The translations under genes and the position numbers were made by a program. From the NCBI GenBank assembly GCA_000146465.1, contig CP001948.1: DNA of 64,000 nucleotides, one strand, 5' to 3'. A model generated the notes under the pieces. That model had not been told where the DNA came from and made no database searches. It saw nothing but the letters and a program-made list of their open reading frames with translations. Below, piece after piece: positions 39,929 to 61,791 of this stretch. The stretch's first letter is position 1. Each line of letters opens with the position of its first letter.

Positions 39929-40009
39929 TGTCAGAAACGGGATTCGAACCCGTGCCTCAATGAGAATACGACCTGAACGTATCGCCTTAGACCACTCGGC
40001 CATCCTGAC
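39929..40009 (-). tRNA. tRNA-Leu, anticodon CAG, class II with a long variable arm
   Basis: Reverse complement reads GTCAGGA-T-GGCCGAGTGGTctAAGGCG-ATACG-TTCAGGT-CGTAT-variable-ACGGG-TTCGAAT-CCCGT-TTCTGAC-A. It has a 7-bp acceptor stem with one G-U pair, a D-loop of the Leu/Ser type, an anticodon loop TTCAGGT giving CAG, a T-loop GTTCGAATC, and no encoded CCA. Coordinates +/-2 nt. Confidence 0.8.
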
Positions 40010-48452: not shown

Positions 48453-49811
48453 GTGTCCCTAGAAGTGGAAAAGGAAATGAAGAGGCGGGCTTACATCTGT
48501 TTCTTTCTTGGGATTGCAACCTGCGAGATCTTTTTAACAACCATAAGACCGATTGACAACCCTAATGTTCTTATGGTTTCTGGAAAAAACGTTGTACTCA
48601 CGGCGAACAGGGAGGACGAGATGGCCACCTTCCGTGTCGAGACCCAAGACAGGAAATCCAGGTTCCTTGGAATAAAGTTTGGGAAACGGAAGCATACTGT
48701 TCTCATATCACCGGGGGACAACCCGAATCTTTATATGAAGTACAGTAAGTCGGATGGGAGGCCTACCATGGGGAAGAAAAAGAAGTACTGGGAATACAAG
48801 GAGATGAAGGATGGAGGCTACATGCTTAGTTCAAGCAAAAACAAGTGTTTGGGAGTGGTTGGGAATAGCTTCAGGATCTCCGAGTGTGGAACTGGAAAAG
48901 GCCAGGTGTTTGTTTTTGAAAGGAGAGACTACAGCGAATCTTCAAGCACTTCTAATTTTGAAGAGCAGATTTCTATTTCTTCGGAGGTTCCCTTGGTTCC
49001 TCCGGTCTCTCAAACTTCTTTGGTTTCTTCAACTTCTCGGTCCTCTCTTGTTTCTTCAACTTCTCCAACCTCTCTAACCTCTCGGATTCCTCAGTCTTCC
49101 TTTGTTTCTCAGACTTCTCCAACCTCTCGGGTTCCACAGGCAATCCAGGCCAGCCAGGCTTTCGAGGCATTGTTTCCATTTGATGAAAGTAATGACTCCG
49201 ATAGCAATAGCGACGACATGAAGCCCGTGTTTATTAATCTGGATATGAAGGACAAAAAGACAAATACAGAAACCCAGGAAAGCAGTTCTCCCATTTCGAT
49301 TTCAACGATGACAGTTTATGTATCTGTCACCAAGTCTCTTTCCGCAGGAGCGGTGTCTTCTTCACCAATAGTGACGATCATCGACAAGTTTCCGCCTGTC
49401 AGTGCCAAACTTCCTCCAAACGTGACGCTTATTCGGAACAGGATTGCATCTTCCGAGGAATCGCAGTCTTCTTGCGAGTCAAGTGATTCTTACTTGGGAA
49501 ATGAAACAGTATCTCACAAAAGTTCCAGCAGAAGCTTAGGAGGAGCCAAGAACGATGCAAATCTGGACTTTGATCTTGAGTTTTATCCAGAGCTGGGGAG
49601 GCTCCTAGACGATAGTATCCGCAAAAAGAAAGAAGAAGAGCTTCGGAAGGAAGCAACAGCTAAAAGGGCTCGAGGGAATCCTCTGGGCGAAGAAAGAAAA
49701 GACGGAGAGTTCTTTAGTGCCTTGGCATATTTAGATACCTCCATCCCAAATCCTTTACGCCAAAACCTAGCGGAAGCACAATCTGCCTGTGCAGACATTG
49801 GGCAAGTATAA
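48453..49811 (+). CDS. Secreted beta-trefoil (ricin-B-lectin-like) protein with a Ser/Thr-rich repeat stalk
   Basis: Signal peptide MKRRAYICFFLGIATCEIF. N-terminal domain with KCLGVVGNSFRISECGTGKGQVFVFE. Central S/T/P-rich imperfect repeats SQTSLVSSTSRSSLVSSTSPTSLTSRIPQSS... and an acidic C-terminus. Confidence 0.6.
   Translation: MSLEVEKEMKRRAYICFFLGIATCEIFLTTIRPIDNPNVLMVSGKNVVLTANREDEMATFRVETQDRKSRFLGIKFGKRKHTVLISPGDNPNLYMKYSKSDGRPTMGKKKKYWEYKEMKDGGYMLSSSKNKCLGVVGNSFRISECGTGKGQVFVFERRDYSESSSTSNFEEQISISSEVPLVPPVSQTSLVSSTSRSSLVSSTSPTSLTSRIPQSSFVSQTSPTSRVPQAIQASQAFEALFPFDESNDSDSNSDDMKPVFINLDMKDKKTNTETQESSSPISISTMTVYVSVTKSLSAGAVSSSPIVTIIDKFPPVSAKLPPNVTLIRNRIASSEESQSSCESSDSYLGNETVSHKSSSRSLGGAKNDANLDFDLEFYPELGRLLDDSIRKKKEEELRKEATAKRARGNPLGEERKDGEFFSALAYLDTSIPNPLRQNLAEAQSACADIGQV
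48990..49140 (+). repeat. Imperfect in-frame tandem repeats of ~27 nt encoding S/T-rich peptides
   Basis: Recurring units tcaaacttctttggtttcttcaacttctcggtcctctcttgtttcttcaacttctccaacctctc...cagacttctccaacctctcgg. Confidence 0.6.
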
Positions 49812-49845: not shown

Positions 49846-50502
49846 TTAATAAGGAGCCCTTCTAAGCCGGGTTATATCGACCACGCCTATAATTTTCTCT
49901 ATCTTTCTGAATATATCGTACATCTTGTGAATCATTTTACGGGTTCTAGCCTTTTCATTAAGCTTCAGCACGGCCTTGAGTGAAGGAATCATCACGAAGG
50001 TTTGGGAATTGTCTCCAGGATTGCAGTCTGTAAAGGAAAGTGCCCATCCGCTTACTCCCTCATAGTTGATTTCGTTTCCAACTGTAAGACACTTTCCTTC
50101 CGATATAAGCTGGAATTTCACACTGTTTGGAAGCCTTTTCAAGTAGATGGAGGACGGTGAGATCTTCATCCTCACGCCTTTCAGGGAGGAGTGAACGTCT
50201 GCTATTTCTATGCAGCGCTCCTTCTTGAGCTCCAGCCACACCTTCTTTGAAAAGCTCTCGTACTTCAAGTCAAAAACCTGGTTTTCCATCATCTCCTTAG
50301 AAAACTCAGAGAGTAGGGCTGGTAGGCTTATTCTTTCTGGATGGATGGTGTCAAACACGGTTAAGGGTTGATTCCGGTGCAGCACATTCAGCATCATTAC
50401 CCCGTCATAATCGGAGTTCCGAAGATGCCTATTGGACCTACCACAAGGCCCATATCCTCTTTGGAATGAATATGCAAATGCAAAGAATAACAACAACATC
50501 AC
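49846..50502 (-). CDS. Secreted beta-trefoil (ricin-B-lectin-like) protein
   Basis: Signal peptide MMLLLFFAFAYSF, and KCLTVGNEINYEGV...CNPGDNSQTFVM shared with the other lectin-like paralogs. Confidence 0.5.
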   Translation of the reverse strand: MMLLLFFAFAYSFQRGYGPCGRSNRHLRNSDYDGVMMLNVLHRNQPLTVFDTIHPERISLPALLSEFSKEMMENQVFDLKYESFSKKVWLELKKERCIEIADVHSSLKGVRMKISPSSIYLKRLPNSVKFQLISEGKCLTVGNEINYEGVSGWALSFTDCNPGDNSQTFVMIPSLKAVLKLNEKARTRKMIHKMYDIFRKIEKIIGVVDITRLRRAPY

Positions 50503-53839: not shown

Positions 53840-54724
53840 TCATGATGTGCTGGAATCTCGAGATTTCTTCTTCTTTTTATCAACCTTCAGAAGAGACTTT
53901 GCAAGCTTCTTCTTGAAACGAGAACCAAGGCGCTTCATTTTCTTCTTAATTCTTGGCTTCTTGAACCTCACGTGTTCCATAAACTCTTCAAGGGATTCTT
54001 CATCACTCTTTGGCTCCCGATGCTTCTTTTTTTTCTTTTCTTTCTTTTTGGTCTTCTCTTTCTTTTCCTCTCTTTCTTCTTCCTCTTTCTTCTCATCCTC
54101 CTCTAGATTTTTCTTGCATCCAGGCTCCTCGTCATCAGTGGTTTCCGAGGAGATTCTTTCCTCTTGGTCCTTTTCCTTGGTATCTTTCTCGCCATCCTTA
54201 TCTCGATCCCCATGCAAGCCTCTCCTGCTCTTCTCTAGATATTCGCATCTATCTCTAAAAACTTTGATTTGGAATCGGAATTCCAGAGACTCTCTTCCAG
54301 GTGGCATGCACTCTTTGAACTTCACTTCTCTACCCACATCTGCCATACATAGTCCACTGTCATGCCCTATCACAATACTTTTGCACTTTGTTGGTGACAC
54401 AAAATGGAACTCAAATCCAGATGGAATATCCTTTCCTCTTCTTTTGTGTCCTCTATAGATTGTCATTCTTCTATATTTGCTATCTACAGTTAGATATCCT
54501 TCCCTTGTATAAAGCTTAAATCCATAAGGCACATTTCTATTCCAATCATATCCAAAAACATAGTCTTCTCTTCTCCGCTTGTCAACAGGCTCTAACCTCA
54601 GAGTTCTTAAGTTAAGGTATCTTCCACTCATCATGGATTTGATTGCAATCCCCATCCTTGACACTACCATTCCCAGATGCAATAGGATATAAACATTCAT
54701 GGCACCTTCCGAGATGCAAACCAC
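53840..54724 (-). CDS. Hypothetical protein with a K/E-rich low-complexity C-terminus
   Basis: Globular N-terminal ~170 aa followed by a (K/E)n tail encoded by the aaga/ctt-rich tract at ~53,990-54,130. Confidence 0.4.
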   Translation of the reverse strand: MVCISEGAMNVYILLHLGMVVSRMGIAIKSMMSGRYLNLRTLRLEPVDKRRREDYVFGYDWNRNVPYGFKLYTREGYLTVDSKYRRMTIYRGHKRRGKDIPSGFEFHFVSPTKCKSIVIGHDSGLCMADVGREVKFKECMPPGRESLEFRFQIKVFRDRCEYLEKSRRGLHGDRDKDGEKDTKEKDQEERISSETTDDEEPGCKKNLEEDEKKEEEEREEKKEKTKKKEKKKKKHREPKSDEESLEEFMEHVRFKKPRIKKKMKRLGSRFKKKLAKSLLKVDKKKKKSRDSSTS

Positions 54725-56337: not shown

Positions 56338-57588
56338 ATGGAAGACATTCTTTTGAGAGGAATAAAGCAGAAGAAAAAGAGGATTCTAAAGGAGGAAGTT
56401 GAGTACAACGTCGATGGAGAAAGACTACCCCTTCTTAACACATTTGACAGTCTAAAGACAAAAGCTCCTTTTTCCTCTCCTCTTTTGGCCCAGAAGGTCG
56501 TTGTGCCGTATTTCATGAAGAAGTACAACATTATTGTACAGGCCTTTACTGGGAGCGGGAAAACACTATCGTACTGCCTACCGCTTGTCGAGACTGCACG
56601 AAACGAGAATCTTTTTGGAATGATACTTGTTCCTGGAAGGGCGCTTGTGAGACAAGTCTATAGGGTTGTAAGAGAAATCAAGCACAGGGAACTGGAGATC
56701 AAGGGGATCTACAGAGATGGTTCCGAGGACTTCTTTGTTGAAGAGGATGAAGAAGGGGGATTGGTTGAGAGGAGAATCGACAGTAGAACACAAAAGGAGA
56801 TTGCTGGGTTCCCTCGGGAAGGAGGAAGAATTGTAATAGGAACGCTCCCGTCGATTCTTAGTTTGATGGATCTGTTTGAAATGAAAGCTATCACACATCT
56901 TATTATAGACGAGGCAGATCTCCTGATAAACCCCGAGACCATCGATGTTTTTGCATCTATTCTTCAGGAAATAGACGTGGAGAAGACACATGTCGGATGT
57001 TTTAGTGCTACTATGAACGAGTATGTTGAGCAGGTTATAGAAACAGTGAAGAACATCACAAAGATACATATTGTGTCGAGGAAACATATAGACCATGAGT
57101 TTGTATTTGGGACAAACAGAAAGATCAAACACCTATCGCTGCTACAGATCGTTGCAGATGGAATTGAATCACCGACCCTGATATTTGTCAGAAATGAAGA
57201 GACCGGGGAGTTTTTAAGTAAGCTGCTGGATAGAAGCGGAGTTTATAAAGAAGGAAGCGGGGAAAGCGCAGAAGTCCTTGACGACTTCCGGCTAAAGAAG
57301 ATCTGGTACCTGTTTGCAACAGATGCATTGAGTAGAGGAATAGACTTCTATAACATTAGGAGTGTGATAAACTATGATCTTCCAGATACTAAGACCCAGC
57401 TTGTGCATAGGGTTGGAAGAGTCAATAGAAATTGCCAGGGACAAAAGGTGTATACAATCTATTCGGGCGAAGACTTTGGAAGAATCTCCCTTGTTGCCGA
57501 GTTTCTAGAGGAGAACGGACATGAGATACCAAGCCACATTACTCGGATTATAGAAAAGAGCCGGAAAAGGATTGGCAGGAGGAGCTAG
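56338..57588 (+). CDS. DEAD-box ATP-dependent RNA helicase
   Basis: Motif I AFTGSGKT, motif II IIDEADLL (DEAD), motif III SAT, motif VI HRVGRVNR. A CCC motif lies upstream of the ATG. Confidence 0.85.
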   Translation: MEDILLRGIKQKKKRILKEEVEYNVDGERLPLLNTFDSLKTKAPFSSPLLAQKVVVPYFMKKYNIIVQAFTGSGKTLSYCLPLVETARNENLFGMILVPGRALVRQVYRVVREIKHRELEIKGIYRDGSEDFFVEEDEEGGLVERRIDSRTQKEIAGFPREGGRIVIGTLPSILSLMDLFEMKAITHLIIDEADLLINPETIDVFASILQEIDVEKTHVGCFSATMNEYVEQVIETVKNITKIHIVSRKHIDHEFVFGTNRKIKHLSLLQIVADGIESPTLIFVRNEETGEFLSKLLDRSGVYKEGSGESAEVLDDFRLKKIWYLFATDALSRGIDFYNIRSVINYDLPDTKTQLVHRVGRVNRNCQGQKVYTIYSGEDFGRISLVAEFLEENGHEIPSHITRIIEKSRKRIGRRS

Positions 57589-58109
57589 CTCCTTTCCTCC
57601 TCTTCGGAGTCTGTGCAGAACGAATCCATATCGTCAACCATCTCTGCTATCCGGGTGCTAACGGGGTCTACGAGTCCTTCCACTTTCCCAACAAGATCCA
57701 TTTTCCTGCGGATTCCATTTGAGTTTTTGGACACCCGAGTAGTACTGTCTATCTGAAACAGCTGGGATGCACTCCTGAAGTCGGATGGATCGAAGCATGG
57801 AGACATCTCCAAGCCTTCTTCTGTGTAAGTTAGACATTGGTCCTCCGAGCATATGATTGTGCCTAATTGCCTGTCGTACACATTCCAGTAAAACTCATCG
57901 TCGCCAATGCTTACTGAATCATTTCCAGATATATACAAGTTTCCTATTGTTATTGCATATTTTCCCTCTTTTTCCTCGATGCTTGTGTTGATCAAGGGAA
58001 TTCTGCCAACCTTTAGTTCTAGATCCGGCTTGAGGAATAGCCTTATCTCCACCGGATTCTTAATATGCCCACAAGCACCCGATAATAAAAGTAGAAATAT
58101 AAATTCCAT
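57585..58109 (-). CDS. Secreted beta-trefoil (ricin-B-lectin-like) protein
   Basis: Signal peptide MEFIFLLLLSGACG, and QCLTYTEEGLEMSPCFDPSD...QLFQI shared with the other lectin-like paralogs. Confidence 0.5.
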   Translation of the reverse strand: MEFIFLLLLSGACGHIKNPVEIRLFLKPDLELKVGRIPLINTSIEEKEGKYAITIGNLYISGNDSVSIGDDEFYWNVYDRQLGTIICSEDQCLTYTEEGLEMSPCFDPSDFRSASQLFQIDSTTRVSKNSNGIRRKMDLVGKVEGLVDPVSTRIAEMVDDMDSFCTDSEEEERS

Positions 58110-58179
58110 ATCTTTTTATTTACTTCCAGGCATCCTGGTATTTATAAATGGGCTTCATCTACGATTGACAGACAAATAT

Positions 58180-58938
58180 TTACCACAACTTCTTACAAAA
58201 CGGGAAACTAAACCAAGGCATGGAGAAGCTGGAAGGACCGAACTTGGGCCTCCTCCAATTAAAATCCCATAACTTGCGAAGGACATCCTTTACATCATCC
58301 TTTCCATCAAGGTCCGGAAGGTTTTTTTTGGCATACTTCGAGAAGTCATTCTTGTCCTCCAGGTTCTTCTTAATCTTTTCTACCTCATCTCTATTTTTCC
58401 TTCCCAGGTTTTCTAATTTCTTTTTGAGCTTGAGCTGTTGCACCATTTCTGCCTCAGTTCTAGGCTTTGCGTTTAGATCGACCGAATCCAGACAACTTTC
58501 AACACCCATATCTTCAAAGAGGAAGACATGACTTCTACTTCTCCCGTTGCACCTCTCCAACACAAGTTTATTCTCATCCCTAGTGCTAAGGCAATATCCT
58601 TCCTGGGATACAGTGAATCCATCTCCACTCTTGGATATTTCCCAGAAATCTATGCTGTCCTCGCATTTAAGAAGATCCCTACCCTTCCGACACAACCAGG
58701 AGTCTCCAACACGAATCTTAAAGACTCGTCCATTCCTGTTGATCTGAGATCTTGTGTTATGTCCGTAAGTTAAATTAAGCTCATCCACAGCTCTAAAAGG
58801 GTTTGATCCAAAGTCTCTTTTGAGTTCGGAGACAAGAAGATGATACTCTGCTGCCAAGATTCTGATAGGTTTGTTGGTAAATGAGTCGAGGTATAGCGGA
58901 TAGGAAAATGCCATTCCAAGAACCAATATCAGAATCAT
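58180..58938 (-). CDS. Secreted beta-trefoil (ricin-B-lectin-like) protein with a lysine-rich C-terminal tail
   Basis: Signal peptide MILILVLGMAFSYP. DSWLC, DFWEI, YCLSTRDENKLVLERCNGRSRSHVFLFE, and a K-rich tail KLKKKLENLGRKNRDEVEKIKKNLEDK. Confidence 0.55.
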   Translation of the reverse strand: MILILVLGMAFSYPLYLDSFTNKPIRILAAEYHLLVSELKRDFGSNPFRAVDELNLTYGHNTRSQINRNGRVFKIRVGDSWLCRKGRDLLKCEDSIDFWEISKSGDGFTVSQEGYCLSTRDENKLVLERCNGRSRSHVFLFEDMGVESCLDSVDLNAKPRTEAEMVQQLKLKKKLENLGRKNRDEVEKIKKNLEDKNDFSKYAKKNLPDLDGKDDVKDVLRKLWDFNWRRPKFGPSSFSMPWFSFPFCKKLW

Positions 58939-59047
58939 GGATGTTGATCTGTATTCCCACTATTTAAAGAAGATGTGATACACGAGTTAGGAGATGTTTA
59001 CGCAAATCACAAGACAATCTTCAGTATAATCGTTTTTAATCCACGAA

Positions 59048-59887
59048 CTAGAAAATTATAGGATCCCTCCTAACCAGATTTTTACTTCTGTAATGGTGAG
59101 GAGAATGATGATGATCTAAGTGCACCCTTTTGACCCCAGAATGGGGGTTTCTTGTCAAGACATGTGTGACAGTCACTTCTTCTTCCTTTGGCAAGGTTTC
59201 TTCATACAAGGGGAAGTCCGCTTCGTCTCCTGAATAGCTGGAGACGTCCCCTTGCTGAGAAAAGGAAGTGTTTCTATTCTTTTCTCTCTTAATGGGGAGG
59301 ATGATGTTCTTATTTACATCTCCCTTTGTCTTTATCCTGATGGATGAAGGACATTCACTCTCTGGATGAAATATATTCACATTTGTTGTCATATTCTTTC
59401 TCCCTTCGTTCCTCAGAAGGGACCCTATGTCTCCACATCCCCCGAGGTCTGCAAGCTTGAAGCTAAATATCTGATCGTCCGTATTGACACAGATCTTCAT
59501 CTGAATGGACTCCTCAGGACCCTTGGTAATGCATTTGTTGTCCGTAGAGATTGTGTATCCAAACTCCTTTCTGTCTATGTCCCAGGGTCTTTCTTCTTTG
59601 CACTTCACCACCGAGTTTCCATCTTTGCATATGTTATTTTCTCCAAATATCACAACATACTTCTCTCCAGACTTCACCAGCCTCGCCCTTGTAACAAACT
59701 TGTACTTGCTTGGATTCACATACTTGCTGTGAGACACTAGAAGCCCATTTTCCTCTTCTAGCCCAAGAATCTGTGTGGGATAGGACGAAAAAAAAACCTT
59801 GATGTCTTTTTCAACAAACTCCTCTAACTCTCTGTCCCTTGCGCTAACAAAGATTGACATAAACATCAAGATCAAACCCGGTTCCAT
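59048..59887 (-). CDS. Secreted beta-trefoil (ricin-B-lectin-like) protein
   Basis: Signal peptide MEPGLILMFMSIFVSA at an internal ATG. YVVIFGENNICKDG...KCITKGPEESIQMKICVNTDDQIFSFK shared with the other lectin-like paralogs. Confidence 0.55.
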   Translation of the reverse strand: MEPGLILMFMSIFVSARDRELEEFVEKDIKVFFSSYPTQILGLEEENGLLVSHSKYVNPSKYKFVTRARLVKSGEKYVVIFGENNICKDGNSVVKCKEERPWDIDRKEFGYTISTDNKCITKGPEESIQMKICVNTDDQIFSFKLADLGGCGDIGSLLRNEGRKNMTTNVNIFHPESECPSSIRIKTKGDVNKNIILPIKREKNRNTSFSQQGDVSSYSGDEADFPLYEETLPKEEEVTVTHVLTRNPHSGVKRVHLDHHHSPHHYRSKNLVRRDPIIF

Positions 59888-59993
59888 GCTTTCCAGAACG
59901 GCTTTTCTTTTGTATAAAATCGTTGAAACCACAGAGGCCTGTCTCACCCCATCATGCGATGAGAAGAAACTCTGTTCCAGACCTGAAGCATTA

Positions 59994-61229
59994 TCATTGA
60001 AATAACTTTGGCTTTCCCTTTGTCTCCCTGACACAGAGGAGTACAAATACACTGAAGACTAGGCAAAGACCTCCGTAAATCCCAGACATAACTTGTGCAT
60101 GGTTATAGTTCAGAGGATGTAGCAAGGTTGTTGTTATGAATCCAAATAGCCAATTGAAACTGACTCCAAACTCAAAGCCGGTGGATGTATATCTCGAGGG
60201 AAATATCTCTGCCGAGATTATCCATGGGATTACTGCAAGCCCGAGGTTGAATCCAATAAAGCAGATTATCACTCCTAGAAGGGGAAACCTGTCCATGGCA
60301 AGAGGGATCATTCCAAATGCCATTATTGTCGAAGAGATGATCGACATTGTTTTCCTCCCAAATCTATCAACTATCAGTCCACAGAATGCAGTTGTTATAA
60401 ACGATACAAACAAAGAAGAACTTGTCATCAGGTTGGGATATTTGCTACTCGAGAATAGGCAAGACTGCTGAAACGTCAAAAAGTTGATTCCAGACAGATG
60501 GTGGAAGGCGTGGAATACTACTGTTATTGCAATCGACTTTGCGGATCCAGGGGTCCTGATTAATTCCTTCATGGATGGCCTGGTGTTGAATGTATTTGGT
60601 GTTCTTGGATGGGGACTTCTAATAAATGCAAATCCTATCGTCTGGAGAACAAGGAACACAAGCATTGCAACGAATGGGATCCTGTAGCTTTCCTTGTTTC
60701 CAAAGAAGTTGAACATGGAGCCTACAAAGAGTCCCCCAACTATCCCGACTGGCTGGAGACTGGCCAGGAACCCCCGGATATGGTCTGGAGCAATGGCATC
60801 TATATAAGATGAAATTGATCCAGAAGTGAGGTCGAGTGCAAATCCAAGTATGAATCTGGACGTTAAATAATGAGCAAAATCCAATGTCATCAGCGGGGTT
60901 GCAAACACAATCATATATATGACGTTGGCTACGATCAACTTCACTTTGTCGTTAGTGAAAGACACAAACTTGAAGATAATTCCTGCAATAAATGCACCTA
61001 GGAAGTGTGTTCCTGGGATTAATGCTTCATGGTATATGGTGTAGGTCTTTCCAGTAGACTCTGTAAAGTGATCTTCTATCAAGCCATAGAGACAGGACAG
61101 GCTTATCAGAGAGACCCCAAATGTAAAGGCTGTCAGAACAACCAAGATCAGGCTGGCAAGCTCTCTTTTGGAAAAGACTTGGTGTTTCATCGATGCTTGG
61201 AGATGTCCCAAAACTTTTATATACTTCAT
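59994..61229 (-). CDS. Major facilitator superfamily transporter (sugar/solute)
   Basis: About 12 hydrophobic helices and the MFS loop motif VDRFGRKTM (D-R-x-G-R-K). The start could be the ATG at 61229 or the one at 61190. Confidence 0.7.
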   Translation of the reverse strand: MKYIKVLGHLQASMKHQVFSKRELASLILVVLTAFTFGVSLISLSCLYGLIEDHFTESTGKTYTIYHEALIPGTHFLGAFIAGIIFKFVSFTNDKVKLIVANVIYMIVFATPLMTLDFAHYLTSRFILGFALDLTSGSISSYIDAIAPDHIRGFLASLQPVGIVGGLFVGSMFNFFGNKESYRIPFVAMLVFLVLQTIGFAFIRSPHPRTPNTFNTRPSMKELIRTPGSAKSIAITVVFHAFHHLSGINFLTFQQSCLFSSSKYPNLMTSSSLFVSFITTAFCGLIVDRFGRKTMSIISSTIMAFGMIPLAMDRFPLLGVIICFIGFNLGLAVIPWIISAEIFPSRYTSTGFEFGVSFNWLFGFITTTLLHPLNYNHAQVMSGIYGGLCLVFSVFVLLCVRETKGKPKLFQ

Positions 61230-61242
61230 TTTTGGAATAGGG

Positions 61243-61791
61243 ATGCCGGTAAAAGAAAAGGAAGAGGTTCTTCTGAAGGATATCAAGGAGGATGTTCAGA
61301 GTGTAAGAGACGCAGTTGTCTTGTCGGACGACGTGTCCAGGATTGACGAGTATAACTTTGAGAGTCTTTTTGGAATATATAAAAATCCGCAGCAGCAAGT
61401 GGTCTTTGTAAGGACGATATATAGGCAGTTAGTAGGAGAGATCTTAAAGTTTTTCTCCTCGAAATGTGTTGCAGAGGCAATGACTAACATCTGCATTCTC
61501 GAAGAAGTCTTTAGGAGCCAGAGGGGGTACATTGACATAGAGATGAGTCTGGAGGATGTGGAGTGCATTAACCAGCATGCATATTCCTTGGGAAAGAAGG
61601 AAAACTCCGGAGTGGTGAGGGAAGGTATACGGGCATGGAACTGTCTAAAGCAGAGAAAGGCTATTCGAATATGTGTCATGCCATTTCCAGATGACGAACG
61701 AAGTTTAATGCTTATTGAAGAAGAATTAGAGGCCATATCGAAGACTCTTGATGGTTGGGAAGATTCTAGAGATGGGAACTGTACAAATTAA
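61243..61791 (+). CDS. Hypothetical protein
   Basis: ORF starting at the internal MPVKEKEE; the upstream part is antisense to the MFS gene. Confidence 0.35.
   Translation: MPVKEKEEVLLKDIKEDVQSVRDAVVLSDDVSRIDEYNFESLFGIYKNPQQQVVFVRTIYRQLVGEILKFFSSKCVAEAMTNICILEEVFRSQRGYIDIEMSLEDVECINQHAYSLGKKENSGVVREGIRAWNCLKQRKAIRICVMPFPDDERSLMLIEEELEAISKTLDGWEDSRDGNCTN

Follow-up and report, generated by a model that had tools for sequence, protein, structure and literature searches.

Polar tube proteins and ricin-B lectins of microsporidia

Microsporidia carry an invasion organelle, the polar tube; among its proteins, PTP4 is, to our knowledge, the sole one for which a host receptor has been proposed. Here, we analyze a stretch of 64,000 nucleotides of contig CP001948.1 (assembly GCA_000146465.1; hereafter the window), which is part of chromosome VII of Encephalitozoon intestinalis ATCC 50506, a human parasite. 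Three consecutive genes on the minus strand, at 57585-59887, very probably represent the ptp4–ptp5 locus of this chromosome plus a third, diverged paralog, Eint_071030, together encoding polar-tube-linked, secreted trefoil proteins.

A proteomic survey of E. cuniculi provided the first identification of PTP4 and PTP5 as polar tube proteins (PMC5413088, PMC10229552). In E. hellem, PTP4 has been localized to the polar tube by immunofluorescence assay and immunoelectron microscopy, with an epitope that is specific to the tube tip. The E. hellem protein binds to host cells as well as to transferrin receptor 1 (TfR1), and recombinant PTP4 or an anti-PTP4 antibody lowers infection (PMC5413088). In Anncaliia algerae, PTP4 marks the end of the polar tube (PMC10229552). 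Both PTP4 and PTP5 have been published as proteins with a ricin-B-lectin (RBL) fold, encoded by genes that are always adjacent (PMC10759460). The identifiers in that study are inconsistent: the main text equates Q8SUK2 with PTP4 and Q8SUY7 with RBLL-1, while the supplement gives the reverse, with Q8SUY7 being ECU07_1090 and thus PTP4. A single-cell RNA-seq study from 2025 lists 14 RBL proteins in the E. intestinalis genome, PTP4 and 'PTP5' among them. Eint_071030 is the 14th and least certain of these; its models have low predicted local distance difference test (pLDDT) scores, but still resemble the RBL fold (PMC11972355).

The wider group of microsporidian RBL/RBLL proteins includes NbRBL, EcRBLL-1 and PTP6. 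As is proposed for the three genes described here, these proteins combine a signal peptide with a single β-trefoil, are encoded in tandem clusters, are co-expressed late and have been associated with adhesion and with the polar tube or spore wall. The PTP4, PTP5 and Eint_071030 families form separate clades. Eint_071030 stands out as a shorter, acidic protein in which the first disulfide pair is missing and the first repeat is truncated.

The ptp4–ptp5 locus of E. intestinalis

A sequence-only reading of the window had proposed a tandem cluster of three secreted, ricin-B-lectin-like paralogs that might be involved in host interaction. The three consecutive minus-strand open reading frames (ORFs) are present where that reading had placed them, and each matches its deposited sequence exactly:

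57585-58109, minus strand: Eint_071030, 174 aa, a diverged, acidic RBL-like paralog directly downstream of ptp5
58180-58938, minus strand: ptp5 (Eint_071040), 252 aa, ortholog of ECU07_1080
59048-59887, minus strand: ptp4 (Eint_071050), 279 aa counted from the ATG

Eint_071050 (279 aa) and Eint_071040 (252 aa) are given as PTP4 and PTP5, respectively, in Table 3 of Han et al. 2020 (PMC7040029). Eint_071050 is 67% identical to ECU07_1090, the PTP4 of E. cuniculi, at 100% coverage. It is the ortholog of both ECU07_1090 and EHEL_071080 of E. hellem (65–69% identical over the full length, same length class), from which it shows no material difference: all are encoded beside ptp5 and have a signal peptide, a single β-trefoil (as predicted) and a His-rich tail. 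Eint_071040 is 67% identical to ECU07_1080 at 100% coverage (252 vs 251 aa). As the ortholog of this E. cuniculi PTP5, it is likewise lysine-rich, basic and encoded beside ptp4, with no material difference.

These identities bear out two suggestions made from the sequence. The middle gene, whose K-rich tail had been likened to those of basic polar-tube or spore-wall proteins, is ptp5 (PMC7040029, Table 3). The suggested link to host adherence and the infection apparatus is supported by the identity of Eint_071050: PTP4 is a polar-tube and TfR1-binding protein in E. hellem (PMC5413088); the data on the tip epitope and on TfR1 binding come from E. hellem, not from E. intestinalis. The genes are separated by only 70 bp (Eint_071030 and ptp5) and 109 bp (ptp5 and ptp4), with ptp4 and ptp5 on the same strand. 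No specific motif is shared by the upstream regions of the three genes, which contain only generic A/T-rich, TATA-like boxes.

Secretion

The three products carry predicted cleavable signal peptides. Their best 9-residue Kyte-Doolittle means at the N-terminus are 2.68 (Eint_071030), 3.11 (PTP5) and 2.84 (PTP4), all of which exceed the 90th percentile (2.62) for the window's 57 ORFs with 150 aa or more, and small-residue (-3,-1) sites can be read from the sequence at ACG/HIK (Eint_071030), AFS/YPL (PTP5) and VSA/RDR (PTP4), where the slash marks the putative cut. This agrees with the signal-peptide-like N-termini noted earlier for the three genes. Experimental data from the same strain point in this direction as well. 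For every one of the 15 PTP/RBL proteins that are up-regulated in the late-stage cluster P4, the first 40 residues drove secretion of green fluorescent protein (GFP) in mammalian cells, and 12/14 RBL genes are up-regulated in this cluster, which corresponds to the late sporoblast stage (PMC11972355). PTP4, named in the same study as up-regulated in P4, is presumably among the 15 proteins of the GFP-secretion set.

Paralogy of the three genes

The strings on which the cluster was originally recognized (QCLTYT...SQLFQI, YCLST...SHVFLFE, KCITKG...DQIFSFK, DSWLC and DFWEI) are all present. The regular expression that had been written for them is too strict for two of the three proteins: PTP5 has H in place of Q, and in Eint_071030, 10 rather than 2–6 residues lie between the cysteine and S-Q. 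A relaxed pattern, C[LI][ST]-x(8-16)-C-x(3-12)-[QH]-x-F, which was drawn up after the genes had been seen, matches these three genes only in a set of 164 stop-to-stop segments with 100 aa or more (six frames), with 0.13 matches expected on average in residue shuffles.

Homology among the members was found by blastp, by profile comparison and in a shuffle control. With blastp, PTP5 and PTP4 match at E 5e-9, Eint_071030 and PTP4 at 7e-5 and Eint_071030 and PTP5 at 0.06. Comparison of ortholog alignments with hhalign connects PTP5 (aa 56-157) to PTP4 at 96% (E 1.5e-9) over ~100 nearly gapless columns, the two proteins being ~22–26% identical. For Eint_071030, the hhalign value against PTP4 is 90%, and it reaches 93.4% (E 2.5e-7) with an 8-sequence Eint_071030 family, with the Q-x-F strand now included; against PTP5, it is 40%, and 80% (E 1.3e-5) with the 8-sequence family. 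After trimming of the signal peptide, the Eint_071030 core reaches scores of 40.9 with the PTP4 family and 32.1 with the PTP5 family, compared with 13.8 +/- 2.6 (maximum 21.6) and 13.2 +/- 2.6 (maximum 22.8), respectively, for column shuffles (n=200 each). Because these scores lie beyond the shuffles and the three pairwise alignments agree in register, the three genes are, as judged from their sequences, paralogs, of which Eint_071030 is the most diverged.

The divergence of Eint_071030 could also be read differently, with only PTP4 and PTP5 as true paralogs and Eint_071030 as an unrelated, small, secreted acidic protein that has arrived at a similar pattern of cysteines and hydrophobic residues through chance or convergence and plays no part in the polar tube. 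Its direct similarity to PTP5 is weak in both blastp and the first hhalign comparison, it has zero Pfam matches, and its models are of low confidence, here (pLDDT 35) as in the literature (PMC11972355). Furthermore, it lacks the first cysteine pair common to PTP4 and PTP5, along with ~20–35 residues of the first trefoil repeat. We nevertheless consider an unrelated origin very unlikely in view of the family-level match to PTP4, a core score ~10 standard deviations over the column shuffles, the consistent register of the alignments and the presence of an Eint_071030-like gene directly after ptp5 in four other microsporidian contigs (described below).

Fold and domain architecture

The three paralogous products can be divided into the following parts, all on the minus strand:

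59840..59887: predicted PTP4 signal peptide, aa 1-16, MEPGLILMFMSIFVSA/RD, from hydrophobicity and the (-3,-1) rule
59444..59815: predicted PTP4 β-trefoil domain, ~aa 25-148
59051..59443: PTP4 C-terminal tail, predicted to be disordered (pLDDT <50), with a His-rich end (HLDHHHSPHHY) that is conserved in orthologs
58489..58881: PTP5 RBL-like core, ~aa 20-150, from hhalign to the PTP4 family and sub-threshold Pfam matches; five cysteines align with PTP4
58183..58473: PTP5 basic K/R-rich tail (26% K+R, isoelectric point (pI) 9.8), with C-terminal FPFCKKLW
57741..57986: Eint_071030 core, aa 42-123, aligned by hhalign to trefoil repeats 2 and 3 of PTP4/PTP5

An AlphaFold2 model of PTP4, built from an 18-sequence merged alignment, contains 12 strands within residues 28–145 and has a pLDDT of 66–91 over residues 63–148, followed by a tail modelled as disordered (pLDDT <50, residues 149–262). 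With its three repeats, PTP4 is thus predicted to adopt a β-trefoil fold. Foldseek comparison of this model with the PDB returned β-trefoil proteins only, with botulinum HA33 and a Clitocybe ricin-B-like lectin on top (E ~1e-3). The top fold matches (HA33, Rhizoctonia agglutinin, SeviL and CNL) are sugar-binding trefoils, and the non-lectin trefoils fascin, FGF and IL-33 score almost as well. PTP5 probably shares the fold, based on its homology to PTP4 (hhalign 96%) and on published AlphaFold models (PMC10759460). Taken with the profile links and the published RBL assignments, the PTP4 model supports the proposal of tandem secreted, β-trefoil/RBL-like paralogs.

Several observations weigh against this assignment, with respect to both the fold and, as discussed in the next section, the polar-tube link. 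Structure prediction gave a trefoil for PTP4, as recognized by Foldseek, but failed for Eint_071030, whose AlphaFold2 model (4 orthologs) is unusable at a mean pLDDT of 35; a trefoil fold for this protein is weakly suggested by ~75 residues of profile similarity and a published low-confidence model. No member reaches the gathering score of Pfam Ricin_B_lectin (PTP5 obtains 16 bits vs 29, E 0.014). Sub-threshold matches to this model occur in 5/6 PTP5 orthologs (best E 0.0029), in 0/8 PTP4 orthologs and in 0/4 Eint_071030 orthologs. PDB sequence-profile searches with the PTP4, PTP5 and Eint_071030 family alignments found no solved lectin. They gave chance matches only (PilP, a pyranose oxidase and a cytochrome b5 domain protein, at E 0.006 to 0.02), and sequence alone therefore fails to reach the solved lectins. 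Lastly, the (QxW)3 signature is absent when the three-protein alignment is read directly: only the last repeat keeps Q-x-F (Eint_071030 and PTP4) or H-x-F (PTP5), the middle repeat keeps W alone, and the first repeat retains nothing recognizable. With the QxW triad this degenerate, lectin activity may be lost.

Compared with R-type lectins (the ricin B chain, Pfam PF00652, e.g. botulinum HA33 and Clitocybe CNL), the similarity of the trio is therefore sub-threshold or absent at the sequence level, and the QxW triad is degenerate. The evidence suggests, rather than proves, assignment to the ricin-B subfamily.

This bears on whether the three proteins might be functional R-type lectins that mainly bind glycans, either host Gal/GalNAc or O-mannosylated PTP1, instead of specific protein receptors. 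The sugar-binding nature of the best fold matches would fit, and microsporidian RBLs are reported as adhesion-promoting in a literature summary (PMC10759460). Moreover, E. hellem PTP4 still bound TfR1-knockout cells, which the authors credit to other host proteins or post-translational modifications (PMC5413088). The degenerate (QxW)3 signature and the unmatched Pfam model speak against sugar binding, as does the finding that trypsin treatment of host cells abolished binding of E. hellem PTP4, with TfR1 as a partner (PMC5413088); the latter result fits a glycoprotein ligand and is no proof of sugar specificity. All considered, a primarily glycan-binding function is possible, though we find it doubtful, and we favor PTP4 as a trefoil protein that binds host-surface proteins.

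PTP5 and the polar-tube assignment

Mature PTP5 is basic (pI 9.1, 10.8% K), and its C-terminal FPFCKKLW is invariant in 6 PTP5 orthologs and recognizable in the microsporidian contigs L004 and L005. This agrees with the description of PTP5 as lysine-rich, basic and ~20% similar to PTP4 (PMC10229552). Its place in the polar tube is poorly documented. The name comes from 'unpublished reports and reviews' (PMC11972355), the protein was undetected in A. algerae polar tubes by antibodies or mass spectrometry (PMC10229552), and a PTP3 pull-down from V. necatrix did not contain it.

Some or all of the three proteins could instead reside in the spore wall or on the sporoplasm surface, or be secreted as host effectors. 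Besides the missing confirmation of PTP5 on extruded A. algerae tubes and in the pull-down, such a location would be in line with the report of E. cuniculi RBLL-1 at the spore wall as well as the polar tube (PMC10759460); for Eint_071030, no localization has been published. PTP4 is hard to accommodate in this scheme, as it was seen on the polar tube in E. hellem by two microscopy methods (PMC5413088) and at the tube end in A. algerae (PMC10229552), and the E. cuniculi proteomic survey recovered both PTP4 and PTP5 as polar tube proteins. A location other than the polar tube is therefore unlikely in our view, and we retain the reading of the locus as one of polar-tube-linked proteins.

The Eint_071030 family and conserved gene order

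Mature Eint_071030 is acidic (pI 4.4), as opposed to the basic PTP5. An exhaustive profile search with the Eint_071030 family found four further microsporidian relatives (E 8e-35 to 1.6e-6), which are 37%, 31%, 27% and 19% identical to Eint_071030; repetitive bacterial surface proteins returned by the same search were rejected as spurious. The gene order PTP4, PTP5, Eint_071030-like is conserved as a full trio in contigs L001, L003 and L005. In L004, the 3′ end of a PTP5-like gene is followed by an Eint_071030-like gene, preserving the junction between PTP5 and the third gene. The third protein is 27–37% identical to Eint_071030 in three of these four contigs (two with the full trio, one with the junction only). 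L006, which encodes the 19%-identity relative, is 1 kb long, has no neighboring genes and is uninformative on synteny.

In E. intestinalis, the cluster is flanked by the following genes:

59994-61286, minus strand: MFS sugar-transporter gene upstream of ptp4 (Pfam Sugar_tr, E 1.4e-39)
56338-57588: DEAD-box helicase gene, convergent and downstream of Eint_071030

The order sugar transporter, PTP4-like, PTP5-like, Eint_071030-like recurs in L001 and L003, while in L005 the upstream transporter is missing. Downstream of the trio, L001, L003 and L005 all have the convergent DEAD-box helicase, NAD kinase and proteasome alpha genes. Between the third gene and the helicase, two contigs carry a fourth gene of ~183 aa (L001 7463-8014 and L005 5649-6203, both plus strand), whose product has a putative signal peptide and C..C / C..C..Q-x-F patterns, i.e. 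two cysteine pairs and a Q-x-F strand. This gene has no counterpart in the window, and its product matches neither Pfam nor, at a significant level, the profiles of the three families. The occurrence of a fourth similar gene in two lineages hints at an ancestral four-gene array.

A literature search found no paper that notes the conserved trio, although such a search cannot exclude one. We tentatively propose that the Eint_071030 family may be a conserved, so far unrecognized third member of the ptp4–ptp5 unit and might be a new polar-tube component. Because its position is conserved, its trefoil is truncated and it is acidic where PTP5 is basic, Eint_071030 could pair with PTP5 and/or PTP4 in the polar tube.

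At both ends, the cluster lies close to its neighbors. An ORF call places the start of ptp4 at a GTG at 60052, with an extension (59888-60052) that runs into the 3′ end of the upstream sugar-transporter gene; we rejected this start as an ORF-calling artefact, as the ATG at 59887 is where the deposited protein and every ortholog begin. At the other end, Eint_071030 and the helicase gene overlap by 4 nt (57585-57588), where a single CTAG palindrome provides both stop codons, an illustration of extreme genome compaction.

Other signal-peptide-bearing genes in the window

The three genes had been described as the only clearly secreted, lineage-specific gene family in the window. Their Cys...Cys...[Q/H]-x-F core is indeed unique to the trio there, but three other genes also encode signal-peptide-like N-termini:

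48477-49811, plus strand: Eint_070940, 444 aa, signal-peptide-like N-terminus, KCLGV...C...GQVFVFE motif and a long Ser/Thr-rich repetitive middle
49846-50499, minus strand: Eint_070950, 217 aa, signal-peptide-like N-terminus and KCLTVG...C...SQTFVMI motif
53840-54700, minus strand: Eint_070990, 286 aa, hydrophobic N-terminus, C..C..C pattern and an extremely charged, K/E-rich C-terminal half (27% K+R)

Eint_070940 has been assigned as the 13th RBL of E. intestinalis by structure (PMC11972355), and it has a weak Pfam match to a CCL2-like lectin (E 0.026). Eint_070950 resembles the Eint_071030 and PTP4 families weakly (hhalign 15–17%). Its ortholog lies directly beside the Eint_071030-like gene in L004 (1053-1691, minus strand), which hints at a once larger cluster. 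Eint_070990 has no Pfam or profile match; unannotated genes of 318–345 aa after the proteasome gene in L001 and L003 occupy its syntenic position and are matched to it by position only. The alignment of the trio with the two genes at 48.4–50.5 kb, suggested by the sequence-only reading, gave no significant profile match, and membership of Eint_070940, Eint_070950 or Eint_070990 in the sequence family of the trio is unsupported at the sequence level (hhalign at most 16–17%). Elsewhere in the window, its sole tRNA gene, tRNA-Leu(CAG), lies at 39929-40009 on the minus strand and is overlapped by mechanical ORFs on both strands.

A model for the trio and its implications

Based on the above, each gene would encode a signal peptide, one β-trefoil (ricin-B-lectin-like) domain and a low-complexity tail, which is His-rich and disordered in PTP4, basic and K/R-rich in PTP5 and acidic in Eint_071030. 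In late sporoblasts, at the time of polar tube assembly, the three proteins would enter the secretory pathway and become incorporated into or onto the tube. After germination, PTP4 would be exposed at the tube tip, where its trefoil may act as the host-binding module. Binding of PTP4 to host-surface proteins such as TfR1 would then contribute to the formation of the invasion synapse. PTP5 and Eint_071030 would most likely serve as accessory or partner subunits; their roles, as well as any sugar binding, are put forward here as inference. In this model, gene identity, paralogy and the PTP4 fold come from the present analysis, and the localization of PTP4, TfR1 binding, P4 expression and secretion from the literature.

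The locus is already known: it is the ptp4/ptp5 cluster with an RBL paralog that the literature has flagged before. Every element of the finding can be traced to earlier work, because the genes and their fold have been named (PMC7040029, PMC10759460, PMC11972355). The locus is biologically important, yet already named, modelled and partly characterized, and what is new here is modest: the PTP4 trefoil is confirmed independently as a predicted fold, the paralogy of Eint_071030 is quantified, and its position after ptp5 is found to be conserved across considerable divergence. This conserved position makes Eint_071030 a reasonable candidate for localization.

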